This document shows positions 1 through 19,043 of a stretch of DNA of 57,034 nucleotides, one piece after another. Position numbers and translations under genes: made by a program. Where the stretch lies: IMG/VR virus record IMGVR_UViG_3300036886_000048, positions 1 to 57,034 of that record. One strand, written 5' to 3'. Under the pieces are notes generated by a model, which worked only from the letters and a program-made list of their open reading frames with translations, made no database searches and was not told where the DNA came from. Every line of letters starts with the position of its first letter. The first letter of the stretch is position 1. The stretch is from a virus. Its lineage: Duplodnaviria; Caudoviricetes.

Positions 1-148
1 AACAGGCTTGAGCGGTGACGTAACAGGCTTGAGCGGTGACGTAACAGGCTTGAGCGGTGACGTAACAGGCTTGAGCGGTAACGTAACACACTTGATCGGT
101 GACGTAACAGGCTTGATCGGTGACGTAACGTACTTGAGCGGTAACGTA
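1..148 (+). repeat. 21-bp coding tandem repeat (about 7 units)
   Basis: Unit GGT GAC GTA ACA (GGC/CAC/TAC) TTG (AGC/ATC/CGC). Confidence 0.97.
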
Positions 149-235
149 GACGACTGCGAAATTACCGAAAAAAACCGAACTGACGGGGTTAATGTTTTAG
201 ACATTGTACTGGATAACGACAATGACCCACTTTGA
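1..235 (+). CDS. C-terminal part of the same heptad-repeat protein
   Basis: Same GDVTxLx repeats, then a unique tail GNVDDCEITEKNRTDGVNVLDIV...; stop at 235. Confidence 0.85.
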   Translation, partial: TGLSGDVTGLSGDVTGLSGDVTGLSGNVTHLIGDVTGLIGDVTYLSGNVDDCEITEKNRTDGVNVLDIVLDNDNDPL

Positions 236-425
236 GTTTTCCAAAGAGCATGGTTGCAGTAGTACGCCGTGTCAAGCGCACCACTTGACTTTTGGTGGAA
301 GGTGTATAAACTGCGGTTACGATCCTGAACATCACGGCCTAGCACTGGCTCCTACGAGGGTATTTAACGCCACTAATCGGCGCTGGTATTCTGTTCCACT
401 GGCTGACGAGAAGGCAGGAGACTAA
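222..425 (+). CDS. small hypothetical protein, possible Zn-binding
   Basis: C-x2-H...CINCG; overlaps the end of the upstream gene. Confidence 0.6.
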   Translation: MTHFEFSKEHGCSSTPCQAHHLTFGGRCINCGYDPEHHGLALAPTRVFNATNRRWYSVPLADEKAGD

Positions 426-426
426 A

Positions 427-654
427 ATGCAATGTATTTGCCAAGCATTAAAAACTGAAAACCACCAGCTTAAAGAGACGGTGACATTCTTGCGCGGAGC
501 CATCAAGCAAAGTCTCGAATACGGCAATATCACCGATCCTGTATTATATCACGCCTTCGTTGCCACTGAACCCGCCCCGCTAGGCTACGTGGAGAGCGAA
601 GGGGAATTTAATCCTTTCGTGGTAGAACCTCTTGACAAACCACTGACACTGTGA
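427..654 (+). CDS. hypothetical protein
   Basis: AGGAGA RBS; tight packing. Confidence 0.65.
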   Translation: MQCICQALKTENHQLKETVTFLRGAIKQSLEYGNITDPVLYHAFVATEPAPLGYVESEGEFNPFVVEPLDKPLTL

Positions 655-660
655 AATAAT
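632..660 (+). promoter_or_regulatory. sigma70-type promoter
   Basis: TTGACA-17-AATAAT, followed by ACTTTCAAACAGGAG leader. Confidence 0.7.
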
Positions 661-687
661 ATAGCCACTTTCAAACAGGAGAATGCC

Positions 688-1080
688 ATGAAAACACCTA
701 CGGGACACGCTGGAACAGGCGCAATCCAGAACCACAGTTTAGGCGCAGATTACCCGTTTACTATTGTGGGGATCGACACCGATGTTACTATTCACCAGAA
801 GCGTCATTTTTATCGCGCCACGTTGCTGACTACTGGACAGACATGGCCAACCCGTGAAACTTATGAGGAAGCACACGCCGACATTGCCTTGATGAAACTT
901 ACGCGTGAGATTACCAAGAATTGCGCGGAGTCTACACCTTATCGTATGGGTTACATTACATATACGTCTGGATCACGCACGGGCAATCCTTACACTGCCA
1001 ATGAAAGTGACTACGGCATGTTTGGTAAAGGTCATTATGACGCCTTGAGGCTGGCAGGTTTGGAGGAGGCTACATCGTGA
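688..1080 (+). CDS. early hypothetical protein
   Basis: Promoter plus CAGGAG RBS. Confidence 0.75.
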   Translation: MKTPTGHAGTGAIQNHSLGADYPFTIVGIDTDVTIHQKRHFYRATLLTTGQTWPTRETYEEAHADIALMKLTREITKNCAESTPYRMGYITYTSGSRTGNPYTANESDYGMFGKGHYDALRLAGLEEATS

Positions 1081-1373
1081 GCAACCTTGAATGCAATTGG
1101 AATGAAACCTTAACCGGGATCGACCGGAATAACACCAAACCAATATCTGATCCTGACACGACTGCCGGGTTAGACGGCTGCACTCTTTGGGGGTTAATAC
1201 GCGAATACGTGCAAGCAGAAGCGATGTACCAAAGGCACTACGCTAATGGTGGCCCCGGCTCTTCGATAACCAAAACTGCCGCCGAACAAGTGACACGAAC
1301 AGAGACGGCTGCGCGTGATGCATTTCAAAAACTACTGCCGACTAACGTGGAGCTAAGGGGCGCGCATAAATGA
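1077..1373 (+). CDS. hypothetical protein; C-terminus (TNVELRGAHK) is read through an attC-like arm
   Basis: GGAGG RBS, GTGA overlap with upstream gene. Confidence 0.65.
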   Translation: MSNLECNWNETLTGIDRNNTKPISDPDTTAGLDGCTLWGLIREYVQAEAMYQRHYANGGPGSSITKTAAEQVTRTETAARDAFQKLLPTNVELRGAHK

Positions 1374-1429
1374 CCGAACAGAAAATACCTCCCGCTTCGG
1401 GCGAGTCCCTCTTCAGCGGCGGGTTAGAT
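1340..1429 (-). mobile_element. integron attC-like recombination site
   Basis: Minus strand ATCTAAC CCGCC GCT(G)AAG(A)GGG ... CCC CTT AGC TCCAC GTTAGTC: inverse core, 5-nt spacer, two extrahelical bases, core. Confidence 0.75.
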
Positions 1430-1585
1430 GACACGGTGCGATACTGGCTTTGCTGCGGTAGCACAGTATATCCGCATGGAGAAAAAACGTGCTACGAAGC
1501 GAAGATGGGGCATCCTGAGCATGTGCGATATGGAACGGTAAAGGATCACTCAGAATGGCAAAATAGATTGTCTTCTAACGTTTGA
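1370..1585 (+). CDS. hypothetical cassette protein
   Basis: Starts inside the loop of the first attC-like site and ends (SNV*) in the arm of the second. Confidence 0.6.
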   Translation: MTEQKIPPASGESLFSGGLDDTVRYWLCCGSTVYPHGEKTCYEAKMGHPEHVRYGTVKDHSEWQNRLSSNV

Positions 1586-1636
1586 ATTAAGGGGCAGGCC
1601 GCTTCTGGCCTATCCCGCTCGAATGATGGGTTGTAC
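1573..1636 (-). mobile_element. integron attC-like recombination site (64 bp)
   Basis: Minus strand GTACAAC CCATC ATT(C)GAG(C)GGG ATAGGCC AGAAGC GGCCTG CCC CTT AAT TCAAAC GTTAGAA. Confidence 0.85.
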
Positions 1637-1650
1637 ACCGGGCTACGAAG

Positions 1651-2268
1651 ATGAGCGTAACGAACTACGAAGTGCGACACACTGAAAGACGCGCCATAGC
1701 TGCCTTTATTGAGCAGTGGCACTACTCAGGTAGCATAAACGGGTGCATAGCGGACTATTGTTTTTCGTTGCATGACGGTGAACGGATGATCGGCGCAATG
1801 TTCTACGGGCGCATGGCAATGGCGGGACAGTGGAAACGCTTTGCTGGGCAGGAAAGTGACGTAATCGAACTGCGCCGACTTTGCTGCATAGATGATACAC
1901 CGAAGAATACGGAGAGTTTTTTTATCGGAGCAACATTGCGCTGGCTGAAACGCAACACCCCACACAGGATTGTGGTTAGCTACGCGGATGCGGAGCATGG
2001 GCATACTGGAACGATTTACCGAGCCAGCAACTTTACGCTGGAAGGGAAACGAGCCGGGGCAAGGGTAATACTCTTCAACGGGAAGCGGTATCACGACAAG
2101 GCAATACGCACGAAGTACAAAGGCGAACTAAAGCCATTTGCAGCGAGAATCAAGGCTGCACTAGAAACGGGCGAAGCGGTGTATGCAACAACAGCAGGGA
2201 AGTTTTGCTACACTTTCGCATTACGAAAACCGAAGGTGGGGCTAGGCTCTGCGAAAGGTGAAAAATGA
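1651..2268 (+). CDS. Mom-like (GNAT-fold) DNA modification protein
   Basis: HYSG, ELRRL, KNTESFFI and VSYADxxxGHxGxIYRASNF motifs. Confidence 0.8.
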   Translation: MSVTNYEVRHTERRAIAAFIEQWHYSGSINGCIADYCFSLHDGERMIGAMFYGRMAMAGQWKRFAGQESDVIELRRLCCIDDTPKNTESFFIGATLRWLKRNTPHRIVVSYADAEHGHTGTIYRASNFTLEGKRAGARVILFNGKRYHDKAIRTKYKGELKPFAARIKAALETGEAVYATTAGKFCYTFALRKPKVGLGSAKGEK

Positions 2269-2471
2269 AACTAATTAGATCAATATCTATGTACACAGAC
2301 CATACTTTTCACGGAAAACCAATCGAGACAAGCCGGGTAGACCTCTATTGCGACGAGATTCTAACACCTGAACAAATAGAGATAGAAAAGCACAACCAAG
2401 ACATGAAGCTACGCAGCATGGCCAAGCGGATGCCTCACAGGTACTGGCGTGAAGTGCCTAACGTAAAGTAG
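2265..2471 (+). CDS. hypothetical cassette protein
   Basis: ATGA overlap; ends PNVK* in an attC half-site (GCCTAAC 2456-2462). Confidence 0.6.
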   Translation: MKLIRSISMYTDHTFHGKPIETSRVDLYCDEILTPEQIEIEKHNQDMKLRSMAKRMPHRYWREVPNVK

Positions 2472-2542
2472 GGGGTCTTTTGGTGAATCTAAATTTGGCA
2501 ATTGGAGGACAGGCTGGGTTTTCTACTCGCTGAAAATAATAC

Positions 2543-2570
2543 TTGCTTTATTATTTGGTATGTGTATAAT
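2543..2570 (+). promoter_or_regulatory. sigma70-type promoter
   Basis: TTGCTT-16-TATAAT. Confidence 0.65.
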
Positions 2571-2604
2571 TAGCACATCTAAACAGCAAACCAAGGAGAA
2601 CGAA

Positions 2605-2934
2605 ATGAACTATTTGAACATCGGCTTGGCGGTTAATGACTGCAAACCTAACACAATTGAGGAAACTGTCTCAATTGTTTGCGTGGCAGGCGTAGAACTT
2701 TGTGCAGTTGAGTTACAAGAGTCCGACACAGAAGAAACCCTTGTAATATCCACGTATACCCCGGTGACTGAACAGCAACTCCACGAGATTGCCACGAAGC
2801 TGAACCAAGAGGCGGTTGCTTATTATTGTGGTAAGACTTCCAAAGGTATCTTAGTAGGCCCTAATGCTCACGCATGGGGAGACTTTAACCTAGATCGTTT
2901 TCTGTTTAATACTACGTACGGCTTAGAAACTTGA
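2605..2934 (+). CDS. putative SAM lyase (T3 gp0.3-like); paralogous to a domain of the giant protein
   Basis: AAGGAG RBS; SDTEETLVI...IATKLNQEAVAYY...GILVGP resembles the TEEKT...QDCVL pattern I recall for T3 SAMase. Confidence 0.55.
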   Translation: MNYLNIGLAVNDCKPNTIEETVSIVCVAGVELCAVELQESDTEETLVISTYTPVTEQQLHEIATKLNQEAVAYYCGKTSKGILVGPNAHAWGDFNLDRFLFNTTYGLET

Positions 2935-3103
2935 ACTAAGGGCGATTGATACCTGCAACCTTTCCATTGCACCTGCTAAACTTTTCCAGCTAAACTACCC
3001 TCAATTCGGAATAGTTTAGCTGTCCCAATTTTAGTTTACTAAACTTTAATTGATCCAGACTTCCCGGGTCACAACCACCAGTTAAAAATAATCAGTAAGC
3101 CTA

Positions 3104-3132
3104 TTGACAAACCCGAAAAATGAGAGGATAGT
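3104..3132 (+). promoter_or_regulatory. sigma70-type promoter
   Basis: TTGACA-17-GATAGT, then AACAGGAGGCTATCATG. Confidence 0.65.
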
Positions 3133-3156
3133 TCTACCTAACAACAGGAGGCTATC

Positions 3157-3561
3157 ATGGACACTACAGACGTTTACCGGGTTGAAGATATAGACGGAGC
3201 AGGAGCATTCACTTCAAGACACTTCTCCCTTTGTGACATGTTCGCAGAGTACCAGCTTAACTGGGTATACCCGTTTGCAGTTGAAGATTGCGGAAGGGAA
3301 CCATGTGAAGGCGAACTTCATGCAGTAAAGAGTTTGGAACTGTTGGCTTACTGGTTCCCTGCCGAAGCAGTAGAAGAAATGACAGGTATGGCAAGAATAA
3401 AGCACTACAGGGTTGACAGTGATAATGTAACGCACGGTAAGTTTCAGTTGATATTTGATCCGGTCCGTGCTGAACTGGTTGAAGATTTTCCTGTTTCAAA
3501 GCTGTTCGAACTTGTACCAGACTATCCCGATTTTGAAACCATCATTAGGAGGTTATCATGA
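3157..3561 (+). CDS. early hypothetical protein
   Basis: Strong RBS; VYRVE...G.G...WF...Q pattern. Confidence 0.75.
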   Translation: MDTTDVYRVEDIDGAGAFTSRHFSLCDMFAEYQLNWVYPFAVEDCGREPCEGELHAVKSLELLAYWFPAEAVEEMTGMARIKHYRVDSDNVTHGKFQLIFDPVRAELVEDFPVSKLFELVPDYPDFETIIRRLS

Positions 3562-3713
3562 AATACTTATCTTTGTATACTACGCCTTGCGGCAACGATT
3601 TAGACTTTACATTGACTGCGGAATCAGCATGGAGCAAGATCAAGCCTATATCTGAATGCACACTGGTTCAGACGCGGGTTAGGGTTACGATCCATCACGG
3701 AACCGCTTACTAA
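3558..3713 (+). CDS. 51-aa hypothetical protein (not in ORF track)
   Basis: GGAGGTTATCATGAAA start; MKYLSLYTTPCGND... Confidence 0.6.
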   Translation: MKYLSLYTTPCGNDLDFTLTAESAWSKIKPISECTLVQTRVRVTIHHGTAY

Positions 3714-3724
3714 CGGAGGTTATC

Positions 3725-3865
3725 ATGAAAGTATTCCACATCAAAATGTTGCTTGGAACCGGAGAATTAAAGCATGTTATCCGGGCGGCATACAACAAGG
3801 TCGAGGCAAGCCGTGCTGCATGTCTCGAATTCGATGGAGAACTGATTTACGTTATGGAGGATTGA
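3725..3865 (+). CDS. 46-aa hypothetical protein (not in ORF track)
   Basis: Identical GGAGGTTATCATGAAA start; MKVFHIKMLLG... Confidence 0.6.
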   Translation: MKVFHIKMLLGTGELKHVIRAAYNKVEASRAACLEFDGELIYVMED

Positions 3866-4042
3866 TGCAATGAACTCAGCACTGCCAGTTTTGATAGCCT
3901 GCCTGTTGACGCCTTGCCCGACCACGAAAGAACCTTCCGCCCGGTACAGTCTCAGCACTCAGGCTAGTTCAATCGGCCTCAAGGCAACCGGTTCATTGTC
4001 GGGCTTCAAGCCATACGATCAATTGAGGGTTGCTAAAACCCA

Positions 4043-4071
4043 TTGACAAGTTTACTAAAGTATGGTATAAT
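4043..4071 (+). promoter_or_regulatory. perfect consensus sigma70 promoter
   Basis: TTGACA-17-TATAAT with TG extended -10. Confidence 0.85.
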
Positions 4072-4529
4072 TTAGTTGTGGGAGTTTAACTCCGGGTGAC
4101 TTTAGCAGGTTGCCCGGTTATTTTGTGGGGGTCGGAATGAAAGTGGAATTGATCCGGCTCTTACTGGCCGCTGTCCTCAGTATCGCAAACCATCAAGACT
4201 GCACCGGGGTCGAGGAGTATCGTAAACATGAAGCAAAGTGGCCTCACCACCGGAAGCACCATCCAAAGCCTAAATTCTATGGTTCCCGGCCTCGCTAGAG
4301 GGGCTACAACGAGTTAACGCAAGTCTGGATAGGCTGACCTAGCTTGGGAAATCCCGCACGAACTGTCCACGGTTGTTGGCGATTCTTGAGAACCATTGAC
4401 AAACCACCTAGTCTGCCTAAAAAATAGGCAACAATCACAAAAAATAACTGGTTGATTTTATTAGACCGACATTCCCAAAGTGTCGAATTTTACGGGGTTA
4501 TACCTCAAACTTACTAACAGGAGAACTAA

Positions 4530-5624
4530 ATGGCCTCACCTTCAACTTGGGTTAATCGACAAGCTAACGGACTGCCGTTGTTGGTGGATATGCGCCATGA
4601 CGATGTACCGATAGTCAACCAGTTATCAGCCAACTCATGCTCTGCTAATTCCGCAGTTGACGTGATGGAAATATGGGAAGTATGGCACGGCACGCCTTGC
4701 ACCTTGTCCCGGTTGTTCCAGTATTACAACGAACGGACTTACACTCCGGGCGCACTGAACAGTGACAACGGCGCAGAGTCTGGCAGCGTGTTCAAGTCCG
4801 CTGCTGAATTAGGAGTGTGTCTGGAGTCTACATGGCCTTATAATCTTGCAACCGTCCAGACTAAACCATCTCAGGCAGCGTACATGGAAGCGCAAAGCCA
4901 CAAGATTACCAGTTACAGTATGCTACCGCAGGCACAACTGAAAGTCGCATTGGCTATGGGTTATCCTGTACGAGTAGCCATGAACGTTCGAACCGGCTTC
5001 TTTGACGTGTACGGCAGCAAGTCTCAGCAGACGGCACAATTCGCAACTTACCTTCAAACTCCTGTTGTTGGCGGTCATGATATGGTGATCCTTGGCTATG
5101 ACGCAAGAGATAACACCATCCTGATCCGTAACTCATGGGGGACAGGTTGGGGTGATGGTGGCTACTGTTACATGCCTGAGTCTATCCTACTGCAAGACGA
5201 ATTCAACCTTTGGGTTGTCACCGGGTACAATGGTTACACTATGCCTGCATTCTGGACACCTGACAGTACGCCAGTGTCACAGCCCACGGTTGGTGTTTAT
5301 CTTGGCCCCGGAGAACAGTTTATCTCAGCCTGTCCTGCCATGATATACGGCAACACTCCGAGGGGCATGGTCACACTCCTGAAAGCGGCACGGAACAACG
5401 TACTGGATTCGAACATTGGGACATTGGCATTGCCAGACAGAACACTTGAGGACTTGGGACTTCTCCAGCAGGGAAGTTCACTCGAAGTGCGACTGAACGG
5501 TGAACTACTTGCCAGTTTGAACACATCTAACGGTGCAAGTCACCAGTTGATCCTTGCCGATGGAAACCACGTGTTACTTAGGATTAACGCCATAATGACA
5601 CTGGATGGAACGGTAATTTCGTAA
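4530..5624 (+). CDS. papain-family (C1) cysteine peptidase with C-terminal extension
   Basis: NQ..NSCSAN, GGHDMVILGYD, IRNSWGTGWGDGGY. Confidence 0.9.
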   Translation: MASPSTWVNRQANGLPLLVDMRHDDVPIVNQLSANSCSANSAVDVMEIWEVWHGTPCTLSRLFQYYNERTYTPGALNSDNGAESGSVFKSAAELGVCLESTWPYNLATVQTKPSQAAYMEAQSHKITSYSMLPQAQLKVALAMGYPVRVAMNVRTGFFDVYGSKSQQTAQFATYLQTPVVGGHDMVILGYDARDNTILIRNSWGTGWGDGGYCYMPESILLQDEFNLWVVTGYNGYTMPAFWTPDSTPVSQPTVGVYLGPGEQFISACPAMIYGNTPRGMVTLLKAARNNVLDSNIGTLALPDRTLEDLGLLQQGSSLEVRLNGELLASLNTSNGASHQLILADGNHVLLRINAIMTLDGTVIS

Positions 5625-5640
5625 ATAGTTAAGAAAGTGC

Positions 5641-5669
5641 TTGACATTTGTACAGAATTATGAGATAAT
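5641..5669 (+). promoter_or_regulatory. sigma70-type promoter of the structural operon
   Basis: TTGACA-17-GATAAT, then a ~195-nt structured leader. Confidence 0.75.
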
Positions 5670-5867
5670 ACAGTGCCTCAAGGAGAGGAATAACAGTTTG
5701 CAACAGCAAACGTCAACCGGGACAAGGCCACAACCAAGTCCCAACCGTAACAAGGCAGCTACCACCCCGCGCACAGTGGGACTTCGAAGCTGCCTTTCCC
5801 GCTCCTAAAGCCGCCTTACGAAATCTATACGCTTCACTAATGCTACACCAAAAAGGAGACTTACGCA

Positions 5868-6968
5868 ATGAATATTTTTACAATTGGCGATTCGACTGTT
5901 GCTCACGTCGATATGGTTCTTCCCCCCTCAGTGGGTGGAAAAGACCTGTCAAGGATCATCGGGTACATCGAAAACGCTGGAGTACCGTCTGGAGTTGTTC
6001 CTGACTTCATTGGCCAAAAACTGTTTGATACGACCAACCATAACTTTTATTATGCCTACGGACTGTCTGCCGGGAACTGGCGCACTACCACTTCTATCGC
6101 GCTGAGTGCTGGAGAAGTGGCATTCTTGTCTGGAGTAACTGCCGGAACAGGTACAGTGTCTCAGGCACTTGTACTGGATGCAAGTGGCGCAGTTCAGATG
6201 CCTGCAACCGGGACACTTGGTTTGTCCTATGCCGCAGTGAACGCTGCCGGAACCACTCCGGGAACCTATGCGGCCTTGACACACCAGTTGAACTCCGTGC
6301 TGCTGGCTGATAATACGACGGGTGTCGCACTTCCTGCCGCCGTTGGTGGACAAGCCGTGTACATTCTGAATACTGTCCAAAACAAACGCCTTCAAGTTTC
6401 TCCGGTGGCTTCGGGCAATGACCAGATCAACAGCCTGACTGCAAACACTGGCGAATTTTCACTTGCTGCTGGAAAAGGCGCATGGTTTATTCCTACGTCT
6501 GCAACTCAATGGTATGTTGACCGTTCGGTTGAAAACAAACTTGGTGACAACAACGATGGGGCGACTGCTCCTGAAACAATTACCAAAAAGGCCACGATTA
6601 CCTACACAAACTTGGGTACGGCTGGCAAGGTTGACGTGTTGACCCCTGCTTCGGCAACTGCTCAGTATTACGTTTCGAACGTGGTTCTTGTTGGTGGTGG
6701 AACGAGCTTCGGGCCTACAGGCGACAGACTTGTTTCTTTGACCGATGGAACAACAGTCTGGACTACGATTGCCAATGCTGACCTTGAAGCTGCACCATCC
6801 GTTTCACTGCCGTTCGGCAATGCCAAAGTACCGTATCTTACCGGAACAATTACAACGCCAAGTGCAGCAGGCGCACAGATTTACTTCCAGTACAGTGGAG
6901 GAACAACAGATGAAACCACGGCAGGGTCGATTGACTTTTTTGTTACATTGACCAAAGCAACCGTATAA
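5868..6968 (+). CDS. putative virion structural protein
   Basis: AAGGAG RBS; Thr/Ala/Gly-rich, beta-type composition. Confidence 0.6.
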   Translation: MNIFTIGDSTVAHVDMVLPPSVGGKDLSRIIGYIENAGVPSGVVPDFIGQKLFDTTNHNFYYAYGLSAGNWRTTTSIALSAGEVAFLSGVTAGTGTVSQALVLDASGAVQMPATGTLGLSYAAVNAAGTTPGTYAALTHQLNSVLLADNTTGVALPAAVGGQAVYILNTVQNKRLQVSPVASGNDQINSLTANTGEFSLAAGKGAWFIPTSATQWYVDRSVENKLGDNNDGATAPETITKKATITYTNLGTAGKVDVLTPASATAQYYVSNVVLVGGGTSFGPTGDRLVSLTDGTTVWTTIANADLEAAPSVSLPFGNAKVPYLTGTITTPSAAGAQIYFQYSGGTTDETTAGSIDFFVTLTKATV

Positions 6969-7083
6969 TAATGGGGATGCCTCAGGGGGGAAAAACCCAT
7001 AAGTACCCCGGAACGGGTTTTACATCATGACTTTTTTGACATTCCTCAAAGATTTATTCACATTCAAGACAAAGGATATACCA

Positions 7084-7362
7084 ATGCTTACAATCCATAA
7101 CGTAATTGCAGAAAAAATTGCTGCCGCTACCGCGAAGGCAGCCACACTTACCGCAGAAGCAGAAGCAGTTGCCACACAGGAAATTGCCGCTGCAAGGGAC
7201 AAACTTGCAAAAGTGAAGGCCGAAATCGAACCCTCAGTCTCTGCCGAAATTGTTTCACTCAAAAATGACTTGGCAAACGTGGAAGCTGCCGGGGAAACAT
7301 TTTTTAATAAGGGTGTTGACGAACTCAAATCCCTGTTTGATGCAGTGAGCAAACATCTATGA
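7084..7362 (+). CDS. Ala-rich helical hypothetical protein
   Basis: AAGGA RBS before ATG 7084 (the ORF track starts at 7027). Confidence 0.65.
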   Translation: MLTIHNVIAEKIAAATAKAATLTAEAEAVATQEIAAARDKLAKVKAEIEPSVSAEIVSLKNDLANVEAAGETFFNKGVDELKSLFDAVSKHL

Positions 7363-7420
7363 AAACCCTTTCAGGCGGTTGCGGGAAGCCCACACCTAAA
7401 CCTCCCAAAAAATAATTCAA

Positions 7421-7714
7421 ATGTTCGTCCGGTTAAAGTTTATAGTCGCGGACTATTGCAAAAAAGTTTTAACCGCCCGGAACAACCGCGATTGGAGTGC
7501 CACAAAACTTATTGTCCTGATGGGTTCTGGTGTGATGATGTTCGAATTCGTCTACTCCCATTCACAGGAATATTTGCAGTTGGGATTAGGCCTCAGTGCT
7601 TTGATTGCAGCGTTGGCTGGCAAATACTTCGTGGAAAATTCCAACTCGGATGAAGAACCTCGTACTGGTGGTGGTACAGACCACGACCATCCAAGAATAG
7701 ACAAGGATGCTTAA
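7421..7714 (+). CDS. putative holin-like membrane protein
   Basis: Two hydrophobic segments and a charged C-tail. Confidence 0.45.
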   Translation: MFVRLKFIVADYCKKVLTARNNRDWSATKLIVLMGSGVMMFEFVYSHSQEYLQLGLGLSALIAALAGKYFVENSNSDEEPRTGGGTDHDHPRIDKDA

Positions 7715-8170
7715 ATGAGAATATCCAAAGATTCAATAACCCGGATTGCTGCCGACACTACCCAATATTCACTTGGGGATGTTATTACAAATACGGTTGC
7801 CTCAGTATTAAGGTTTGCTACAAACAATAGTTCTGGTTCAATCAATTCTGCAATACTGGTCGATTCGGTAATTGCTGGTGGAACCAAACTTCAAGCTGAT
7901 TTGCTTTTATATTCGGCTGCTCCGACAATCGCAGCAGACAATGCCGCGTTTAGTCCGACTGCCGCACAGGAAACAAACTTGGTTGCAGTAGTTCCGTTTT
8001 TGACAGCAAATTTTGTGGGAGCCGTAACCGCAGGGCATACGGTAAGTGTTCTGACTGCCCCAATTCCATTTGTAGCTCCTGACGGAGTTTTGTACGGAGT
8101 TTTAGTTGCGCGTAGTACGTATACGCCAACTGGAGCAGAGGTAATTACTATCAATTTAGGTATAGTGTGA
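7715..8170 (+). CDS. putative virion protein
   Basis: Beta-rich; contiguous in the operon. Confidence 0.55.
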   Translation: MRISKDSITRIAADTTQYSLGDVITNTVASVLRFATNNSSGSINSAILVDSVIAGGTKLQADLLLYSAAPTIAADNAAFSPTAAQETNLVAVVPFLTANFVGAVTAGHTVSVLTAPIPFVAPDGVLYGVLVARSTYTPTGAEVITINLGIV

Positions 8171-8427
8171 TGACTGTTCCGAATGGTTGGCAACTCGATA
8201 AGACCGTTTCGATTGGGCATATTGTTACCACATTGACAATTATCATATCTTTGTTTGTCTGGATTGAGAGAGTTGACTTACGGCTCATTGTTTTAGAAAC
8301 AGAGATTGTCCAAATGAAGGGTAATGAATCCCGGTTAGAAGCCACTCAGAAAGAAAACGTTGACGAACTAAAATCCATTCTGTTACGAATTGAACAGAAA
8401 CTGGACGACAAGGCCGATAAAAAATGA
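8167..8427 (+). CDS. membrane-anchored coiled-coil protein
   Basis: One TM segment, then coiled coil ending IEQKLD. Confidence 0.6.
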   Translation: MMTVPNGWQLDKTVSIGHIVTTLTIIISLFVWIERVDLRLIVLETEIVQMKGNESRLEATQKENVDELKSILLRIEQKLDDKADKK

Positions 8428-10583
8428 GTGTTTATTATCCCGACACGGTTGCAGGAACGGCGCAATCCCAACCTTCCATGCAACAAAACGCTGCCGGGGA
8501 TACTTTTGCTGTTCCTCCGCAAGTACCCAAACAGGGAATGATTCTACCCTATCAGAGTACGGACACTGTTTTATTGTTGGCAGATCGGTACGCCCGTGGA
8601 ATTGAAGGAATGGCTAAGTGGGCGGAAGAAGCAAAGAAATGCACGGACATGACAGAAGGTGCTCAATGGACACCTGAAGCACTGGCCGTATTGGAAGCAC
8701 AGGATCGTAAAGCGTTTAAGTGGAACGAGATTGCTCCAATCGTCCGGTTGGTATTGGGGTATCAGCGCAGTACAAAAACCGATTTGAAGATTACCCCAAG
8801 TTGGCAAGGTTCAGCAACTACTCAGACTGCCGATGCGCTGACCTCTATCCTGAAACAGTTGGCTGAGAATTGCCAGCAATCGTATGTGGATACCGAAGTA
8901 TTCATGGATGGGATTATAACAGGTCGGGGTTTTTATGATGCCCGACTGAATTTTGAAGATAATGAATTGGGTGAAGTTTTCATTACATCCAGTGATCCGT
9001 TTAGTACGATACTTGACCCTGATGGGGATCAATACGACTTGAACGAATTGAATTATATCATTGACGATAGATGGGTTACGATTGACGAAGTCGAATCCGT
9101 GTATGGGCCGGATGCAGGAATGATGCTCAGACCGTTGTTCAGTGCCGCAGGCATGGCTGGATTACCGAATAGTTCTCTCTCTGCCCTTTTACAGACTGCT
9201 GCACCTTGGCGGTATTTTGGCGGTGCAAAAGAAACATTTGGAAGTCGTACACTTGAAAGTTATTATTTGCAATCATATGATCCTGCCAGAAAGAACATCC
9301 GGCTTTTGGATTGTCAGTCTTACGTTCGATGCCGTCGCAGGTACTGGATTGACCTCGAAACTGGACGCAAGGAGCCTGTAGATGATTCGTGGACTCCGCA
9401 ACAAGTTCAAGCCGTGTTGGATTGGAGTAACCAGAAATATCAGGCGATGGGCAAGCAAAGTCCTATCAGGTTGGTGGTAAGACCGGGGAAAAGGATTCGC
9501 TGGACTACGATGGTTGGCGACATTGTGGTTTATGACGGCTGGAGTCCGTACAAAACGTACACCAAGATCGGTTTCTTCCCGTGGTTTCGCCGGGGAAAAA
9601 CGATGGGCATGGTGTCCGACATGATCGAACCTCAAGAGGCTATCAACAAAATGGGCAGTTCTGAAATGGATATTGTTGCCCGTTCCGCAAATAGCGGTTG
9701 GAAATATCACCATGACTCACTTACCGCCGAAGAAAAAGATCGGTTGCAAGAGGAAGGTGCTTCTCCCGGATACAATATGGAATGGAAGGGCAGTGTTCCT
9801 CCAGAACGAATCGAACCCGGTGCGCCTCCCACACAACTAGAACATTTGCAATTAAGGAACAGAGATTCGTTGAAAAGTATTTCGGGAATTAACGATTCTG
9901 CCCTTGGACAAATTGACCGGGTGCAATCAGGTGTAGCGGTGGAAGCCAGACAGCGGCAGTCAGTTATATCTGTTCAGGTATACATGGATAACTTTAGTAG
10001 AAGTAAGGAGTTACTTGGGCGTAAGGAACTCGAACTCATACAGGATCACTACACCGAAACCCGCACGTATCGTCTGATGGGTGATGATGGGAAGAACCAG
10101 CAGGTAACGATCAACGAAAAACTGGAAAGTGGTGAGATTCGGAACGATGTGACGAACGGTGAATACAAGTTTGTTGTGGATGAAACCCCGTTGGCAAAAT
10201 CCTTCGCTTCGGCTCAGTTCGATGAAACAATGAGTTTGATACAGAACGGCGTTTTGAATATCCAGATACCTGCCGTGCGTGACCAGATCATCGACTTGTC
10301 CAGTTTGCCAAACAAAGACCAGTTGAAACAGGCTATTCAACAATGGCAACAGTCTCAGGCTTCTGCAATGCAGTCACAAAACAAACGTCCTCCCTCGGAG
10401 TCTCTCAATTATAAAGATGCACCCGATGATGTGAAACGGCAGATCGAACAACAGGCAGGATTACAACCCTCTCAGTTACAGCCGCAACAGGCCGTGGCAG
10501 GGCAACCGCAAGGTGGCGGGACTCCTACTGCACAACCATCACAACAACCCGCGCAAAACGCGCCTATCGCGGTTCAGGGGTAA
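8424..10583 (+). CDS. portal protein (P22-like)
   Basis: G.QW...N.I.P.V..VLG, DGIITGRG, PQEAINK, SGVAVEARQ; Gln/Pro-rich tail. Confidence 0.9.
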   Translation: MSVYYPDTVAGTAQSQPSMQQNAAGDTFAVPPQVPKQGMILPYQSTDTVLLLADRYARGIEGMAKWAEEAKKCTDMTEGAQWTPEALAVLEAQDRKAFKWNEIAPIVRLVLGYQRSTKTDLKITPSWQGSATTQTADALTSILKQLAENCQQSYVDTEVFMDGIITGRGFYDARLNFEDNELGEVFITSSDPFSTILDPDGDQYDLNELNYIIDDRWVTIDEVESVYGPDAGMMLRPLFSAAGMAGLPNSSLSALLQTAAPWRYFGGAKETFGSRTLESYYLQSYDPARKNIRLLDCQSYVRCRRRYWIDLETGRKEPVDDSWTPQQVQAVLDWSNQKYQAMGKQSPIRLVVRPGKRIRWTTMVGDIVVYDGWSPYKTYTKIGFFPWFRRGKTMGMVSDMIEPQEAINKMGSSEMDIVARSANSGWKYHHDSLTAEEKDRLQEEGASPGYNMEWKGSVPPERIEPGAPPTQLEHLQLRNRDSLKSISGINDSALGQIDRVQSGVAVEARQRQSVISVQVYMDNFSRSKELLGRKELELIQDHYTETRTYRLMGDDGKNQQVTINEKLESGEIRNDVTNGEYKFVVDETPLAKSFASAQFDETMSLIQNGVLNIQIPAVRDQIIDLSSLPNKDQLKQAIQQWQQSQASAMQSQNKRPPSESLNYKDAPDDVKRQIEQQAGLQPSQLQPQQAVAGQPQGGGTPTAQPSQQPAQNAPIAVQG

Positions 10584-10586
10584 ATT

Positions 10587-10706
10587 ATGAAATCCGGACT
10601 TGAAGGATTTGCAGGATTCGCCGGGTGTGTAATCGTAATCATTGCAGCAGTGGTTTTGACGAGTTGCATTTCGCTTTCGTCAATATTTAAGAAAAAATTC
10701 AAATGA
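10587..10706 (+). CDS. 39-aa membrane peptide, possible lipoprotein
   Basis: Hydrophobic stretch ending VLTSC; ATGA overlap with the next gene. Confidence 0.4.
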   Translation: MKSGLEGFAGFAGCVIVIIAAVVLTSCISLSSIFKKKFK

Positions 10707-11242
10707 GCTATCGTAAAAACATAAAGCATTTGCACGATTTACCTGACCATTGGCTTACTGCCCGTGCAGTGGAATGGCTTCTCAGGAACATTAAAACCTG
10801 TTGGTGGATTATGAGTTTTACTGCCGATGGCACACCAGTTTCAGCTTCGTTCGGGAACGGGGTAAGGGGGATTGGAGATAACCCCAACGGTAAAACGTTG
10901 GATGGAAAAGATGCCAAACTGAAAACTTGGCATCCTCCAATTGAAAAACAACAGTTCGCCAAAGAGATATGCGAATATCTTAATCTGTCATGTAATGGCG
11001 GCGGGGCATGGATGGCCGGATGGGTTGACCTCACAGTTGAACAGGCGTTTTACTTAATTTGGAAAGACTTCGATGGAGATATACAACTGGACATCGAGTT
11101 TCCGCAGTCGTCCGACGAACTGATGAACAAATGGAATCCTGATAGTTTTGTAAATTTAGCACTGACTGCCATTGAAACTTGGCAAGAACAACGAGTAGCA
11201 CTTGCACTCAGGCCGGATCAAATAACATCGTTAGCACACTAA
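10703..11242 (+). CDS. hypothetical protein
   Basis: 179-aa ORF in operon. Confidence 0.7.
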   Translation: MSYRKNIKHLHDLPDHWLTARAVEWLLRNIKTCWWIMSFTADGTPVSASFGNGVRGIGDNPNGKTLDGKDAKLKTWHPPIEKQQFAKEICEYLNLSCNGGGAWMAGWVDLTVEQAFYLIWKDFDGDIQLDIEFPQSSDELMNKWNPDSFVNLALTAIETWQEQRVALALRPDQITSLAH

Positions 11243-11243
11243 A

Positions 11244-11771
11244 ATGACAATCTGGATTAAGTTGATTATTTTCTTGGCGATTATTGCCGTTGCGTCAGGA
11301 ACCGCATGGCATCTCAGAGGTATTGAAGCGGATCGGGACATAGGCGTTTTAAAACAGCAAGTTCAAGGCGAGATAATCAAACAGCAAGATTTGGTCGCAA
11401 AATATACTCAAACTTTACAGATAGTTGCAAACGGTGTGGAGGAACAAACCAATGTTGATACAAAAAAACACAATGCTGAAATTGCTTATTATAAGCAGCT
11501 TGTCAATCAGTCTGGAGGCTTGTACGACAACGGCACTTCCGTCCGTAAAGGGGATAGTGCAACTGCCGGAAATTCCGGTAGCGATAACCCAACCTCCAGC
11601 GGGACAGGACTTCCAGAAATCGTTGATCGACCACTTTCAGAAGAAAACACTGCCTTCCTCCTCGACCAAGCAAACAAAGCCGACAGAGTCGTTGACCAAT
11701 ACCTCACCTGTCAACAATACGTCAAAAAATTAACAGATTTTTCTAAACTGCATCAAGGGGACCCGAAATGA
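11244..11771 (+). CDS. Rz-like spanin
   Basis: N-terminal TM, coiled coil, LS..FL...A.KAD.V...CQ.Y tail. Confidence 0.65.
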   Translation: MTIWIKLIIFLAIIAVASGTAWHLRGIEADRDIGVLKQQVQGEIIKQQDLVAKYTQTLQIVANGVEEQTNVDTKKHNAEIAYYKQLVNQSGGLYDNGTSVRKGDSATAGNSGSDNPTSSGTGLPEIVDRPLSEENTAFLLDQANKADRVVDQYLTCQQYVKKLTDFSKLHQGDPK

Positions 11772-12058
11772 AAGAAATGAATTGCAAGCAATGCAAAGAC
11801 AAGGGCGCAGACGAATCCGCAAAACACGAAGGAACCGAATCCAAAAAGGTTGAGGCCGGAGAACCTGCTGAACCGGGTGATCCTAAAAAGAACTGGATTG
11901 CCGGAGCCATTGGAAAACCGGGTGCGCTTCATACCCAAATGGGTGTTCCTTCCGGGGAAAAAATTCCAACCGGAAAACTGGATGCCGCTGCAAAGAATAA
12001 AGGATTGTTGGGTAAACGCGCACGGTTGGCGATTATCCTGAGTAAGTTTCATCACTAA
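11768..12058 (+). CDS. small basic phage protein
   Basis: KNWIAGAIGKPGALH...GEKIP...GKRARLA. Confidence 0.7.
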   Translation: MKEMNCKQCKDKGADESAKHEGTESKKVEAGEPAEPGDPKKNWIAGAIGKPGALHTQMGVPSGEKIPTGKLDAAAKNKGLLGKRARLAIILSKFHH

Positions 12059-12188
12059 GTTTGGCGGAAGGCATTCCGCGAACGTGTCGCCTACGTTAAA
12101 GGGCGTATGAGAACCGAACTCTAAATCGGGAAAACCAGTCGCCGTGGTAATCCGGGCGTGTCGTTAGTCTATCGAAAAGGACAAGAAA

Positions 12189-13211
12189 ATGCCTCAAGAA
12201 CTATCACCAGAAGAAGTAGCGTTGCAGGAGTCTACAGCAGCTTTAGCAAAAGAGGAAGCGGATCGTTTGGCAAAAACCGATGAAAAATTCGGGGATCAGT
12301 CGAAACAATCAGCACAGGTTGCGGAAGCAAAGATTGAAGAAACCAAAACCGAGCCAGTAGAAGTAAACATAGGCGAAACCGAATCTGTTGCAAAAGTAGT
12401 TGAAAAACAACGTGGCAATCCCGTCGATGCAATCGTGGCTTTACGCAAGCAATTGCAAGAGGAACGTGAGCAAAGAATCTTGGTACAAGGACAAAATCAA
12501 GTTCTGTCCCAAGTATTGCAATCGGGAGGACAACCCCAACAACAGCAACAACGAGTTGATCCGGCAGTATTGCTGAACCAGATCGAAGATGCCAAGTTGG
12601 AAGCGGCAGACAAGGTGGACAAAGGCGAGTTGACCGTCCGTGAATATGAGCAAACCCGTTCGCAACTCGAACGCAATGCCCGTCAGATCGAACAGCAACT
12701 TTACTTGGAGCAACAGTCGAGACAACAACCTGTGCAAGTAGCGAAACAAGATGATTTGTATCTCGCCCAACAGACTGAGGAACTGGCTAATGCGTATCCT
12801 TTCTTGGAGGAATTATCTGCCGATGATTTGGAACCTTTTCACCAACTTGCTTTGCGGCAGGCTGTAAAAGAGGGAAACCCGATTCAGTCAGGGCCACTCG
12901 AAACACTGCGACTACGTACACTGATGGTGCAACTTGCGGCAAAAGTGTATCAACCTGAGGAAACGAAAGCCGCTGCAAGTGTGACACAACCGAGTTCTGC
13001 CGATGCCCAAAAAGCGTTAGATGCAAAACTGGCCATGCAAGCGACAATGCCCCCGGACACTAGCAAACTAGGTAGCGGAAGTTCAGCCGCAGGAATGACA
13101 GAAGCAGAATTGGAACGCAGGTTGACTGCACCCAATTTGACTGACGCGCAAGCGGAAGCGTTGCTCTCCAGCATTTCCCCGGCACTCCGCGAAAAACTGA
13201 GCATACGTTAA
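12189..13211 (+). CDS. capsid scaffolding protein
   Basis: Acidic, Gln-rich coiled coil directly upstream of the capsid gene. Confidence 0.75.
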   Translation: MPQELSPEEVALQESTAALAKEEADRLAKTDEKFGDQSKQSAQVAEAKIEETKTEPVEVNIGETESVAKVVEKQRGNPVDAIVALRKQLQEEREQRILVQGQNQVLSQVLQSGGQPQQQQQRVDPAVLLNQIEDAKLEAADKVDKGELTVREYEQTRSQLERNARQIEQQLYLEQQSRQQPVQVAKQDDLYLAQQTEELANAYPFLEELSADDLEPFHQLALRQAVKEGNPIQSGPLETLRLRTLMVQLAAKVYQPEETKAAASVTQPSSADAQKALDAKLAMQATMPPDTSKLGSGSSAAGMTEAELERRLTAPNLTDAQAEALLSSISPALREKLSIR

Positions 13212-13244
13212 GTGTGCTTGTAATTTAAACGATAGGAGAATAAC

Positions 13245-14354
13245 ATGGGCTTTACTGCATTTGGCGCGTTGAGTGCCTTGCAAAAAAGAGTCTGGTTGGA
13301 TCAAGTCTCTGTTCAGGGTCGTCACCGTGCCTTCTGGCTGGCGAACGGCTTTGTAAGCAATGACGAAACCAACACAGGCTTGCCTGTTACGAAAGTTACC
13401 AAACTGAATGAAACTGAGCGCGGGACAGAAGCGGTTATGCCGTTGATTCCTGACTTGGATATTAACTCAGGTGTGGTTGGTGACAACCGTTTGGAAGGGA
13501 ACGAAGCCGTACTTGGCGCAGATTCCCAAACCATTCGTATTGACCAACTTCGTAATGGTGTGAAATCAAAAGGGGCGATGGCTGAACAGGAAACTGTTAT
13601 CCAGTTTCGCGCACAAGCACAGGACAAACTGGCATTTTGGCTGGCTGACGTTAAGGACGAACTGATGTTCTTGACCGTGGCTGGACGTGCCTATACCCTG
13701 ACAACTGGTGGCGCAACTCGCGGTACATCGCAATTGTCAAGTTTGAAATTTGCCAACGACGTTGTTGCAGCTTCCACTCACCGTATTATTTACGGTGGTG
13801 CAGCTACAACCGAAGGAACCCTGACAGCGGCAGACACTATGACATGGAATCTGGTTGTGAAATCGGCAGCGTTTGCAAAACGCAAAGCCATACAGCCTAT
13901 CCGTCAAGGTGGACGTGAATATTATGCAATCGTAATGTCCACAGAGCAAATGCGCGACTTGGTTCAATCTGCCGATTACAAGGCAATTGTGTCTCAAGCC
14001 GAAGCGCGTGGTTCCGACAATCCTCTGTTCGCAAATGCGAAAGTGGTCATTCAAGGTGTTGTGTTGTATGAACACCAAAAAGTGTATCACACTCTGGATG
14101 GTACAGGTTGGGGTGCAGCTAATGCAATCCACGGCGCACAAGCAGTTCTTCTGGGGGCGCAAGCACTCGGTATCTGTGAATTGCGTGGGAAAGCACAAAT
14201 GGCAGAATCCGATAACACCGACTACGGCAATCAGCCGGGTATTGCGATCAAGAATATCTTCGGTATTCTGAAACCGCAGTTTAAATCGAAATACGATAGC
14301 AATGCAGTTGAAGATGCCGCAGTAGTTAGCATCAAAACCGCTGCTGCCGCCTAA
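13245..14354 (+). CDS. major capsid protein (N4 gp56/DUF4043-like)
   Basis: GVVGDNRLEGNE, IDQLRNGV, NPLF, LLGAQAL, DYGN. Confidence 0.9.
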   Translation: MGFTAFGALSALQKRVWLDQVSVQGRHRAFWLANGFVSNDETNTGLPVTKVTKLNETERGTEAVMPLIPDLDINSGVVGDNRLEGNEAVLGADSQTIRIDQLRNGVKSKGAMAEQETVIQFRAQAQDKLAFWLADVKDELMFLTVAGRAYTLTTGGATRGTSQLSSLKFANDVVAASTHRIIYGGAATTEGTLTAADTMTWNLVVKSAAFAKRKAIQPIRQGGREYYAIVMSTEQMRDLVQSADYKAIVSQAEARGSDNPLFANAKVVIQGVVLYEHQKVYHTLDGTGWGAANAIHGAQAVLLGAQALGICELRGKAQMAESDNTDYGNQPGIAIKNIFGILKPQFKSKYDSNAVEDAAVVSIKTAAAA

Positions 14355-14369
14355 TAGGAGGAAACGAAA

Positions 14370-15062
14370 ATGTCGCAATTTGAACGTGTAAGTTTCCAAC
14401 TGTATGACCAAGACGGTATTGCAATCAATGCAACTGGCGGTCAGGTACAAGTAAACACTGTATCTACCTGTCATAAGGCGACACTGTATGACAAAAATGG
14501 GGTTGCAGCAACTAACCCTGTTACGTTGTCCACAGGTGGTGCGGAATTCTACGTTTTGAGTTCTGTATCCACGGTTGACCTTTACATTGACGCGCCTCAC
14601 GGTCAGTACGCAGTAAAAAAAGGCGTAGTTGTAGGCGGTTCTTACAACTACAAAGTCAACACTAACGAAAAACAGCAAGTGTATGTGATACCTTTCAGTA
14701 TTACTGACGCCGCTGCGACTGTCGAACATGATACAGGGGTTGTTCTTCCTGCCCATGCTCAAGTTGGTTCCAAGTACCAAGGTGCAACAATCCGTACCGT
14801 GACGCTTGAATCTGGCAAAACAATCGACGTTGGCACACTCTCTAGTCAAGCTGGAGGCGATGCAAACGGTTACGTCAATGCCAATTCGTTGACAAATGCT
14901 GCACAGTTGATTATCACGGAAGGTGCGTTATACACAACCGCAGGCGAAGCCGCGTTTGTTGATACCAATCCTGCTGCTGTAAATATCTCGTATACCTTGA
15001 GTTCTGCTACCAGTGTTGCGGAAGGGTTCATCATTCTTCCTGTGATTTTGGAAACAGCATAA
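14370..15062 (+). CDS. putative capsid decoration/minor structural protein
   Basis: Directly follows the capsid gene; AGGAGG RBS. Confidence 0.6.
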   Translation: MSQFERVSFQLYDQDGIAINATGGQVQVNTVSTCHKATLYDKNGVAATNPVTLSTGGAEFYVLSSVSTVDLYIDAPHGQYAVKKGVVVGGSYNYKVNTNEKQQVYVIPFSITDAAATVEHDTGVVLPAHAQVGSKYQGATIRTVTLESGKTIDVGTLSSQAGGDANGYVNANSLTNAAQLIITEGALYTTAGEAAFVDTNPAAVNISYTLSSATSVAEGFIILPVILETA

Positions 15063-15066
15063 AAGG

Positions 15067-15095
15067 TTGACTTGATAGGTAATTTGTGATACAAT
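15067..15095 (+). promoter_or_regulatory. sigma70-type promoter
   Basis: TTGACT-17-TACAAT. Confidence 0.65.
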
Positions 15096-15150
15096 GCAGG
15101 GGTAGTATTGAGAAGTATTATCTCTGCATTTAACCACAAGGAGTTTAACT

Positions 15151-15642
15151 ATGGAACAAGTACAAAACAAAGAAGATGTTGGATACGTCATTGATACGCT
15201 TGCCGTTGCTGATAAACGTATTCACAAGATACCTGTCTCTTTTGACAGTCAGAACAAACCCGTTTCGTTCAAACATTATAGTTTGAGCGCGAACGAGGAA
15301 ACAGAAATGCCGATAAATCATGCCATGTATTTCTTGGTGGATAGTGCATTTATCGTAAAAGATGGAAACAAGGTAGTTCTCAAAGCTCTCGCCAATCAAG
15401 AGCAGGCGACCCACATAGCGATACCGGAAGGATTCGTGCTGGCTGAGTATTCGGAACTGAACCGTGACGCCTTAGTGACCCGCTGCAAGGTCTTGCCGGG
15501 GTCGGCACACATCCATCCTGTAAAAACCAAAGTGGACGAGTTGATTGCTTTTTTGAAATCGGCTCAACCAGTTGTTGCGGATACAAAAAAGTTCGATGAA
15601 GTCGGAATAACGGCTCTCGACAAAATGTTCGGTGACGCATAA
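15151..15642 (+). CDS. hypothetical protein
   Basis: AAGGAG RBS. Confidence 0.7.
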   Translation: MEQVQNKEDVGYVIDTLAVADKRIHKIPVSFDSQNKPVSFKHYSLSANEETEMPINHAMYFLVDSAFIVKDGNKVVLKALANQEQATHIAIPEGFVLAEYSELNRDALVTRCKVLPGSAHIHPVKTKVDELIAFLKSAQPVVADTKKFDEVGITALDKMFGDA

Positions 15643-15652
15643 TGAATGACGG

Positions 15653-18525: not shown

Positions 18526-18568
18526 TTAAGGCAAACACAAATGATCCAGACCGCCACAACCAGTATCA

Positions 18569-18640
18569 GCTAATGGTGCGACTGGAACCAACGGCGGCCC
18601 CGGCGGAGAGAGCTACGCAATGATTCAATACAACGCATAA
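18569..18640 (+). pseudogene. orphan Gly-rich C-terminal remnant of another fibre gene
   Basis: ANGATGTNGGPGGESYAMIQYNA* with no in-frame start (stop at 18542). Confidence 0.45.
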
Positions 18641-18649
18641 GGATAAATC

Positions 18650-19042: not shown

Positions 19043-19043
19043 A

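Follow-up and report, generated by a model that had tools for sequence, protein, structure and literature searches.

Integron attC sites and a putative Mom cassette in a phage record from peat metagenomes

The 57,034-nucleotide (nt) viral record IMGVR_UViG_3300036886_000048 (Duplodnaviria; Caudoviricetes), analyzed here over its whole length and called the window in what follows, includes two integron attC sites located near its left end, the second of which lies just ahead of a gene of the Mom family of DNA-modification proteins. Both are genuine attC sites. The reading that best accounts for the data, to which we assign a probability of about 0.85, is that nucleotides 1340-2240 consist of two integron cassettes within a + strand phage operon, that they constitute an integrase-less attC cluster (CALIN), and that they come from a pool shared with prophage-like integrons. 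One of them, cassette B, would be composed of an open reading frame (ORF) of 71 amino acids (aa) and attC site 1, and the other, the Mom cassette, of the Mom gene and attC site 2 (Table 1). Mom would shield the phage DNA from restriction.

The identification of the sites was achieved with three covariance models. R1 was built from nine real class 1 attC sites and was run on the whole window, both strands, with filters off; R2 was built from 18 real attC rows, and R3 from 24 attC-like sites present in other viral contigs, none of them taken from the window. The top two hits of all three models were the same, and their coordinates coincided exactly with those at which an earlier note, prepared from the sequence of the window, had placed two "complete" sites. 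R1 gave 36.1 bits (E 9.4e-7) to 1636->1573 and 19.1 bits (E 0.021) to 1429->1340, the next best hit in the window being 13.0 bits. The corresponding R2 scores were 30.4 bits for site 2 and 22.5 bits for site 1, with noise in the window not exceeding 11.3 bits, and with R3 they rose to 62.4 bits (E 1.4e-14) and 50.1 bits (E 3e-11), with at most 10.3 bits elsewhere. When real attC sites were held out, R1 assigned 39.5 bits to dfrA12, 25.8 to dfrA5, 24.2 to dfrA1 and 14.8 to another, and missed two, and R2 assigned 23.9 bits to qnrVC4 and 21.4 to arr-2; the R1 and R2 scores of the window sites are thus in the same range as those of held-out genuine sites. As a negative control 556 kb of unrelated phage DNA were searched, in which the best R1 hit was 16.4 bits and R3 produced no hits at E<=1. 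The check with an attC covariance model that the earlier note had called for, carried out with these surrogates, was therefore significant for both sites. The only R1 hit in the control DNA (L003:3034-3064, E 1) is a short hairpin with AAC and GTT ends located directly upstream of another Mom gene, and is probably due to chance. An Rfam scan of nucleotides 800-3000 yielded no matches. Since the real aadA1 attC likewise obtained no attC match, this negative result is uninformative, and Rfam appears to hold no usable attC model.

All three models located both sites on the minus strand, and on the + strand no covariance hit reached the reporting limit at either of them. The orientation given in the earlier note must consequently be reversed, its inverse core being the core and its core the inverse core, and the genes run in the antisense direction relative to the sites. 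In the minus-strand reading, the boxes match the consensus RYYYAAC/GTTRRRY at 7/7 and 6/7 positions in site 1 and at 6/7 and 6/7 in site 2, the R'' box of the latter being identical to that of the real estX attC. The model alignments show three unpaired (extrahelical) positions on the 5' arm of each site in this reading. When the sites are aligned with real attC sites, both arms of site 2 are similar to those of the aac(6')-Ib attC; sites 1 and 2 are also similar to each other. The loop of site 1 is enlarged by about 28 nt, an insert that on the + strand carries the stop codon of a 98-aa ORF and the ATG of the 71-aa ORF; relatives with long loops exist. Enlarged loops that include a Shine-Dalgarno-like sequence and the ATG of an antisense cargo ORF were seen both at window nucleotides 1340-1429 and in a metagenome contig (L175:281-403). 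Other elements of the earlier description did not hold up. Of the eroded half sites that it listed, the one at 1169-1175 coincided only with an R3 hit at noise level (9.5 bits at 1127-1175), and nothing was found at 2241-2247 and 2456-2462. Among the three complementarities that it noted between boxes across cassettes, the middle pair (1423-1429 with 1573-1579) falls on the verified sites, and the other two are not above chance.

In the IntegronFinder definition a CALIN consists of at least two close attC sites on one strand with no integrase nearby. The two minus-strand sites, 143 nt apart in a record that gave no match to the tyrosine recombinase family PF00589, form such a cluster. Neither an integron integrase gene nor an attI was detected in the window, which does not hold a complete integron.

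The same attC family is found in other viral contigs. The exact 22-nt core of site 2 is present in nine IMG/VR contigs, in which attC sites, up to about 9 of them, form arrays on a single strand. Site 2 is 84-98% identical over 42-60 nt to sites in these nine otherwise unrelated contigs; outside the approximately 58-nt site they share nothing with the window, and a tblastx comparison detected no similarity. One of the nine, the locus L091, encodes an integron integrase (nucleotides 3214-4236; TIGR02249, 477.5 bits with a cut-off of 265; Pfam Phage_int_SAM_4 and Phage_integrase). Directly 5' of the gene there is an attI-like stretch consisting of two direct repeats and a core box, beyond which three attC sites are located on the strand opposite the integrase. 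Relatives of this integrase are encoded in 71 IMG/VR loci, and R3 gave 187 attC hits distributed in about 47 of them. All but five of these hits (182/187) show the canonical geometry, in which the sites lie 5' of intI on the other strand. The alignment of the family, which was fitted to the model and in this favours the result, shows covariation that preserves pairing: 93.5% of the cells are paired and there are 81 double changes, compared with 26.1 in shuffles (none of 500 reached this number); slid controls showed at most 47.7% of cells paired.

In five loci that were sampled, intI is adjoined by genes for a phage integrase (tyrosine or serine type), tail or lysis proteins, and seven of the ten ORFs scanned beside intI match a PHROG family. 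The presence of phage integrase, tail and lysis genes beside intI indicates that these loci are prophage-like elements. The sites of the window belong to an attC family used by integron integrases of prophage-like elements from soil, peat and freshwater samples. The earlier note had proposed the integrase of a host integron acting in trans; the source need not be a "host" integron, as the integrases found for this family sit on prophage-like contigs. In the group of loci L104 to L174 it was also observed that integron integrase genes are common in IMG/VR contigs, and that the array is often located between intI and the contig end.

To follow the cassettes as units, contigs of four metagenome runs were aligned to nucleotides 1-5000 of the window. 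Several of them share only 1342-1428 or 1575-1632 and diverge on both flanks. Contigs of runs X4 and X6 include the block 1576-2238, i.e., site 2 and Mom, with approximately 94% identity and with flanks that differ on both sides; in them nucleotide 2238 is joined through three letters to the end of an attC like site 1. In the metagenome contig L175 (1,210 nt) the Mom unit is part of an array with three attC sites (68.2, 55.5, and 55.3 bits). This contig is 93.5% identical to nucleotides 1576-1854 of the window; leftward of the site 2 R' box it is unrelated to the window and encodes a different 76-aa ORF. The similarity of the Mom unit thus begins at most 3 nt from the crossover point of site 2. 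For the 71-aa ORF, which matched neither Pfam nor PHROG, a search of 5.8 billion proteins gave a single relative. This protein, P0002 (83% identical, 80 aa), is encoded on a 2,777-nt contig, and the similarity stops after ...SSNV, which corresponds to the R' box of site 2; the continuation beyond this point differs. The Mom unit is therefore found with different neighbours in L175, X4, and X6, and the 71-aa ORF with a different continuation in P0002. These alignments show the same cassettes occurring elsewhere with other neighbours and with breakpoints at the crossover box, which bears out the claim of the earlier note that the sites delimit mobile units.

The product of the Mom gene matches the Pfam profile over residues 6-193 of its 205 amino acids (E 4.8e-35, 121.5 bits with a cut-off of 27.1), and its ATG at 1651 leaves a gap of 14 nt after site 2 (1637-1650), as the earlier note had counted. 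Confirmed relatives in IMG/VR number 108; among the best 80 of these 108 the closest, L001, shows 88% identity at the protein level, shares DNA with the window solely over 1643-2235, and was found to contain no attC. Mom-family cargo with the same geometry is present in the IntI-linked arrays L130, where the gene starts 36 nt from the attC, and L137. A local tblastn search with the small ORFs of the window against 85 integron-related loci found relatives of Mom only.

Table 1. Features of the cassette region of the window (feature, coordinates, strand, details)
attC site 1, 90 nt	1340..1429	-	R'' ATCTAAC (1429->1423), R' GTTAGTC (1346->1340); R1, R2 and R3 scores
attC site 2, 64 nt	1573..1636	-	R'' GTACAAC (1636->1630), R' GTTAGAA (1579->1573); R1, R2 and R3 scores
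Cassette B (putative)	1346..1578	-	cargo 1578->1430 and attC site 1; inferred from the R' boxes of both sites
Mom cassette (putative)	1579..2239	-	site 2 and antisense Mom gene; shared blocks in X4, X6, and L175
71-aa ORF, cassette B cargo	1370..1585	+	starts in the loop of site 1, stop in the spacer of site 2
Mom-family DNA-modification gene, 205 aa	1651..2268	+	Pfam PF25680
98-aa ORF	1077..1373	+	ORF list; last 11 codons and stop inside attC site 1
68-aa ORF	2265..2471	+	ORF list; overlaps the Mom stop codon (ATGA)
Predicted sigma-70-like promoter	632..660	+	TTGACA, 17 nt, AATAAT, with TG; consensus scan only

Cargo that lies upstream of its attC and shares its strand, the usual arrangement, is not what the window contains: the + strand carries the Mom gene and the 71-aa ORF, and the minus strand their attC sites. 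The orientation of the sites is given by the side on which the unpaired bases are located, by the position of intI and attI in complete integrons, and by the fact that the attC travels at the 5' end of Mom. The same antisense arrangement is seen in other loci. Cargo of L091 that has Pfam support, a C5 methylase and a PAPS reductase, is antisense to the attC sites. In L093 Pfam support was obtained for three of five opposite-strand ORFs compared with none of five same-strand ORFs, one of the three being a DUF1376 ORF that lies in a 2.5-kb gap between attC sites and may not be cassette cargo. In nine further loci the figures were 10 of 11 opposite-strand and one of nine same-strand ORFs, in a sample (not a census) of cassettes picked for long ORFs and with one of the ten opposite-strand matches (L107, DHH/DHHA1) below the Pfam curated cut-off. 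A strand census of 92 stretches between attC sites by G+C content at third codon positions (GC3) classified 28 as same strand, 32 as opposite strand and 32 as unclear, and was not used as evidence. Canonically oriented cargo does exist: L151 has an APH-family gene and L175 an ORF that, by eye, is lipoprotein-like. The L151 gene (L151:3567-4364) is an APH phosphotransferase ORF (Pfam APH, E 2.8e-33) located in a canonical cassette of the integron of a provirus called in an isolate genome. It was also observed that ORFs that enter a neighbouring attC share one frame, in which the AAC of the box is read as Asn (6/6 cases looked at, among them window 1340-1373, L091 about 1845-1923 and 2114-2195, and L175 597-610). 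The protein tails that recur from this reading are ...NVELRG... or ...PNVQIE..., and the other two frames stop at once at TAA. Transcription of antisense cargo would proceed from the phage operon, not from an integron promoter.

The cassettes may have been drawn from the pool shared with integrons on prophage-like elements by either of two routes. An integrase could have acted in trans while the phage infected a cell carrying such an integron, or ordinary recombination could have captured a stretch of an array. The latter route, in which the piece of array would have been taken up ready-made, fits the data as well as the action of an integrase on this phage genome does.

Several observations weigh against the presence of two integron cassettes in the window. 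Folding of single-stranded DNA gave, for either strand of either site, values no better than those of shuffles (z +1.04 to -0.60), compared with z values of -1.33 to -8.46 for the bottom strands of 15 of 15 real attC sites drawn from class 1 integrons on nine plasmid records; a stably folding recombining strand, as expected of an attC, is not seen in the copies of the window. Close relatives of site 2 have fold z values of -1.59 to -3.96, and the bottom strand of site 2 reaches -7.0 kcal/mol compared with -11.0 to -13.6 in three of the closest (L098, L091, and L175). A1612 is a G in other copies, where it closes the stem. The copies of the window look worn in their stems. The earlier note had seen no tyrosine recombinase, and the record, which is 72% complete, gave no PF00589 match either. 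The Mom cassette ends on the right within the last codons of the gene, where no GTT box can be recognised in the window. No excised or joined forms were present in the aligned contigs, a type of data in which rare forms do not appear. Contigs of run X2, which belongs to an independent study, break at the attC sites, and the link 1326-1341 is not bridged by any X2 contig listed. Finally, R1 to R3 are surrogates for the model of IntegronFinder and their E-values are rough.

A part of these observations finds a place in the view that the arrangement is an inert relic, i.e., that the block attC1-ORF71-attC2-Mom was copied once from an integron array, for instance that of a prophage, by homologous or illegitimate recombination, that no integrase ever acted on this phage, and that the sites are now decaying spacers. 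This view shares its origin with the explanation that we prefer and differs from it in mechanism and present activity only, and we consider it close to an even bet, on the lower side. It accommodates the weakened stems of both sites, with A1612 where other copies have G, the non-canonical right boundary (2239-2247), the lack of an integrase and of further sites above noise, and the same arrangement in runs of two studies. As the internal boundaries would be inherited from the donor array, the breakpoints in L175 and P0002 do not discriminate between the two views. What speaks against a relic is the left boundary, where 1340-1346 retains an R' box with 6/7 matches, and the preservation in the model alignments of all pairs of the R and L boxes save two in site 1. 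In addition, a published study (PMC9892861) reports that IntI1 recombined five of six phage attC sites whose quality was comparable.

That a repeated attC could have led the assembly to join an integron-bearing fragment to a phage contig by mistake also had to be considered, and we give this possibility little credence. attC sites are repeated in these metagenomes, X2 contigs end at 1325/1342, 1529, and 1625/1632, and the array is 1.3 kb from the contig end; many IntI contigs also end in their arrays. One X2 contig, however, from the different study, spans 1596-2811 through Mom and the 68-aa ORF with no difference, and the stretches 1342-1529 and 1509-1625 are covered by others, whose overlap is unique cargo sequence. 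Furthermore, the ORF at 2605-2934, to the right of the cassettes, and residues 2009-2109 of a 3114-aa protein of the same record match the same family, phrog_11722. In X2 as a whole, window nucleotides 25-5000 are found at 99% identity or more in five of the six aligned contig records, covering 30/30 bins, and a second study's run contains 96% of the words sampled from 900-2800.

Still less credible is a palindromic repeat unrelated to integrons, similar to repetitive extragenic palindromic (REP) elements or to miniature inverted-repeat transposable elements (MITE), or a phage regulatory hairpin, that would merely resemble attC. Such an element could explain why the sites are at gene junctions and why on the + strand they include the Shine-Dalgarno-like AAGGGG, followed in site 1 by a start codon, but not the canonical position of the family beside IntI in 182 of 187 hits, the attI-like region of L091, or the scores obtained with models built from class 1 attC sites only.

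Motif counts, fold z values and a scan of box pairs had pointed to chance. On the + strand of the window there are 58 GTTRRRY (65.3+-9.0 expected) and 61 RYYYAAC (67.0+-7.8 expected), both at or below chance; there are 237 pairs of boxes, neither with more than one mismatch, at a distance of 50-150 nt, the claimed sites rank between 37th and 239th of 474 strand readings in fold energy per base, and the whole length of site 1 is inside two overlapping ORFs. The notion that common 7-mers, a small hairpin and ribosome-binding sequences merely coincide is nevertheless refuted by the three covariance models, which set both sites 6 to 52 bits above everything else in the 57 kb with no comparable hit in 556 kb of controls, and by the near-identical copies that adjoin integron integrases. 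As a point of method, a covariance model found at once sites that motif counts and fold energy had missed.

The window derives from peat metagenomes and is a phage fragment, as indicated by profile matches to a P22-like portal, a major head protein and the 3114-aa protein; the record is linear. A megablast search of GenBank phages with nucleotides 1-20000 and pattern searches of IMG/VR with the 98-aa, 71-aa, and 130-aa ORFs found no relative. The putative cassettes are in a block of five + strand genes (688-2471) located 3' of the sigma-70-like promoter match listed in Table 1; the consensus scan of 1-8500 that identified it gave 13 sites compared with 9.3+-3.0 in shuffles. A repeat finder and a promoter and terminator scan of the same 8,500 nt detected no repeat family linking attC sites 1 and 2, and a search for the motif CCGCTTCNGG was not significant (13 matches compared with 8.0+-2.7 expected). 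The 98-aa and 68-aa ORFs that border the putative cassettes match no Pfam or PHROG family; the former shows no sign of being a cassette. The hairpins were also considered as promoters of an N4-like virion polymerase, a candidate that was dropped in view of the P22-like portal and the major head protein, the attC sites explaining the hairpins.

Other features were observed on both sides of this block. The left end of the window (1-168) consists of at least six head-to-tail copies of a 21-nt unit, the first of which show 92-100% identity. A contig of run X2 extends about 2.2 kb past it, and the left end of the window is consequently not a genome end. To the right of the cassettes, the 109-aa ORF at 2605-2934 has the phrog_11722 match mentioned above (E 8.6e-14), to which the 3114-aa protein (27962-37306) also contributes a segment, and a weak, sub-threshold match to an S-adenosylmethionine lyase family (17.2 bits with a cut-off of 28). 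It may be a further counter-restriction gene beside Mom. A 364-aa ORF at 4530-5624 encodes a papain-family cysteine protease domain (Peptidase_C1, E 2.6e-14) and has upstream of it a perfect TTGACA-17-TATAAT promoter match (4043-4071).

Integrons are known mainly as bacterial collectors of resistance genes. Recent preprints also describe them as stores of anti-phage defence systems, and the window would illustrate the other side using the same device, a phage in which a Mom-type gene forms an integron cassette. Integrases on prophage-like elements are linked to the pool from which this cassette would come, and most of the cargo that can be recognised in the pool consists of DNA-modifying enzymes. 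Taking these features together, we tentatively propose, at somewhat under even odds, that the window is an integrase-less offshoot of an undescribed class of phage-resident integrons. In these, intI would be located by the prophage integration module, the arrays would contain mainly genes for DNA modification, and thus counter-restriction (N6/N4 and C5 methyltransferases, PAPS-reductase-like enzymes and Mom), the cargo would be systematically antisense to the attC sites and transcribed toward intI, with some ORFs starting in the attC loop, and the arrays would serve as exchangeable stores of counter-defence genes from whose pool phages that have no integrase also draw. Such a class, if real, would be the mirror image of the bacterial integrons that store defence systems. 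The use of a Mom cassette from such a pool by a phage, if confirmed, would provide a concrete and testable route by which unrelated phages could rapidly exchange genes against restriction. A question of integron design also arises, namely for what reason cargo and attC run antisense to each other and by what means these cassettes are expressed.

Among known systems, the class 1 attC sites share with those of the window the R'' and R' boxes, the 5-nt spacer, the L boxes with unpaired bases on the R''-L'' arm, and a variable loop. They differ in that the copies of the window are thermodynamically weak, and in that the cargo of the class 1 plasmid controls is on the same strand and upstream of attC whereas that of the window is on the opposite strand. 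Another parallel is found in phage Mu, in which the Mom gene of the Mom/Com system is preceded by a small upstream ORF and a hairpin. The Mom-family gene of the window is likewise preceded by a small ORF and a hairpin. Unlike in Mu, the 71-aa upstream ORF has no Pfam match and would be part of a separate cassette, the Mom unit follows a different ORF, of 76 aa, in L175, and what forms the hairpin is an attC site rather than a translational operator.

Integrase-less attC clusters with methyltransferase cargo in virulent and temperate phages were reported in 2023 (Qi et al., Front Microbiol, PMC9892861). According to the text of that article, 17 CALINs were found in 10,705 isolate phage genomes, genes and sites were typically co-oriented, five of six tested phage attC sites recombined with IntI1, and a bacterial integrase acting on them was proposed. 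The window is like the CALINs described there in having at least two attC sites, no integrase and DNA-modification cargo, and unlike them, as far as that text goes, in its antisense cargo, in an ORF that starts in the attC loop and in a site family tied to integrases on viral contigs. The word Mom does not occur in the text of the article, whose supplementary tables may list related cases. Full-text searches of the literature, supplements excepted, yielded nothing on a Mom cassette, on this attC family or on cargo that is systematically antisense, and a Mom cassette and cargo antisense to attC are apparently unreported so far. The window is also akin to the complete integrons of prophage-like contigs, which have an intI of the TIGR02249 type, an attI-like region and arrays on the 5' side of intI. 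They lack neither of the two components, intI and attI, that are missing from the window, they contain its attC family, and their recognisable cargo points toward intI rather than away from it.

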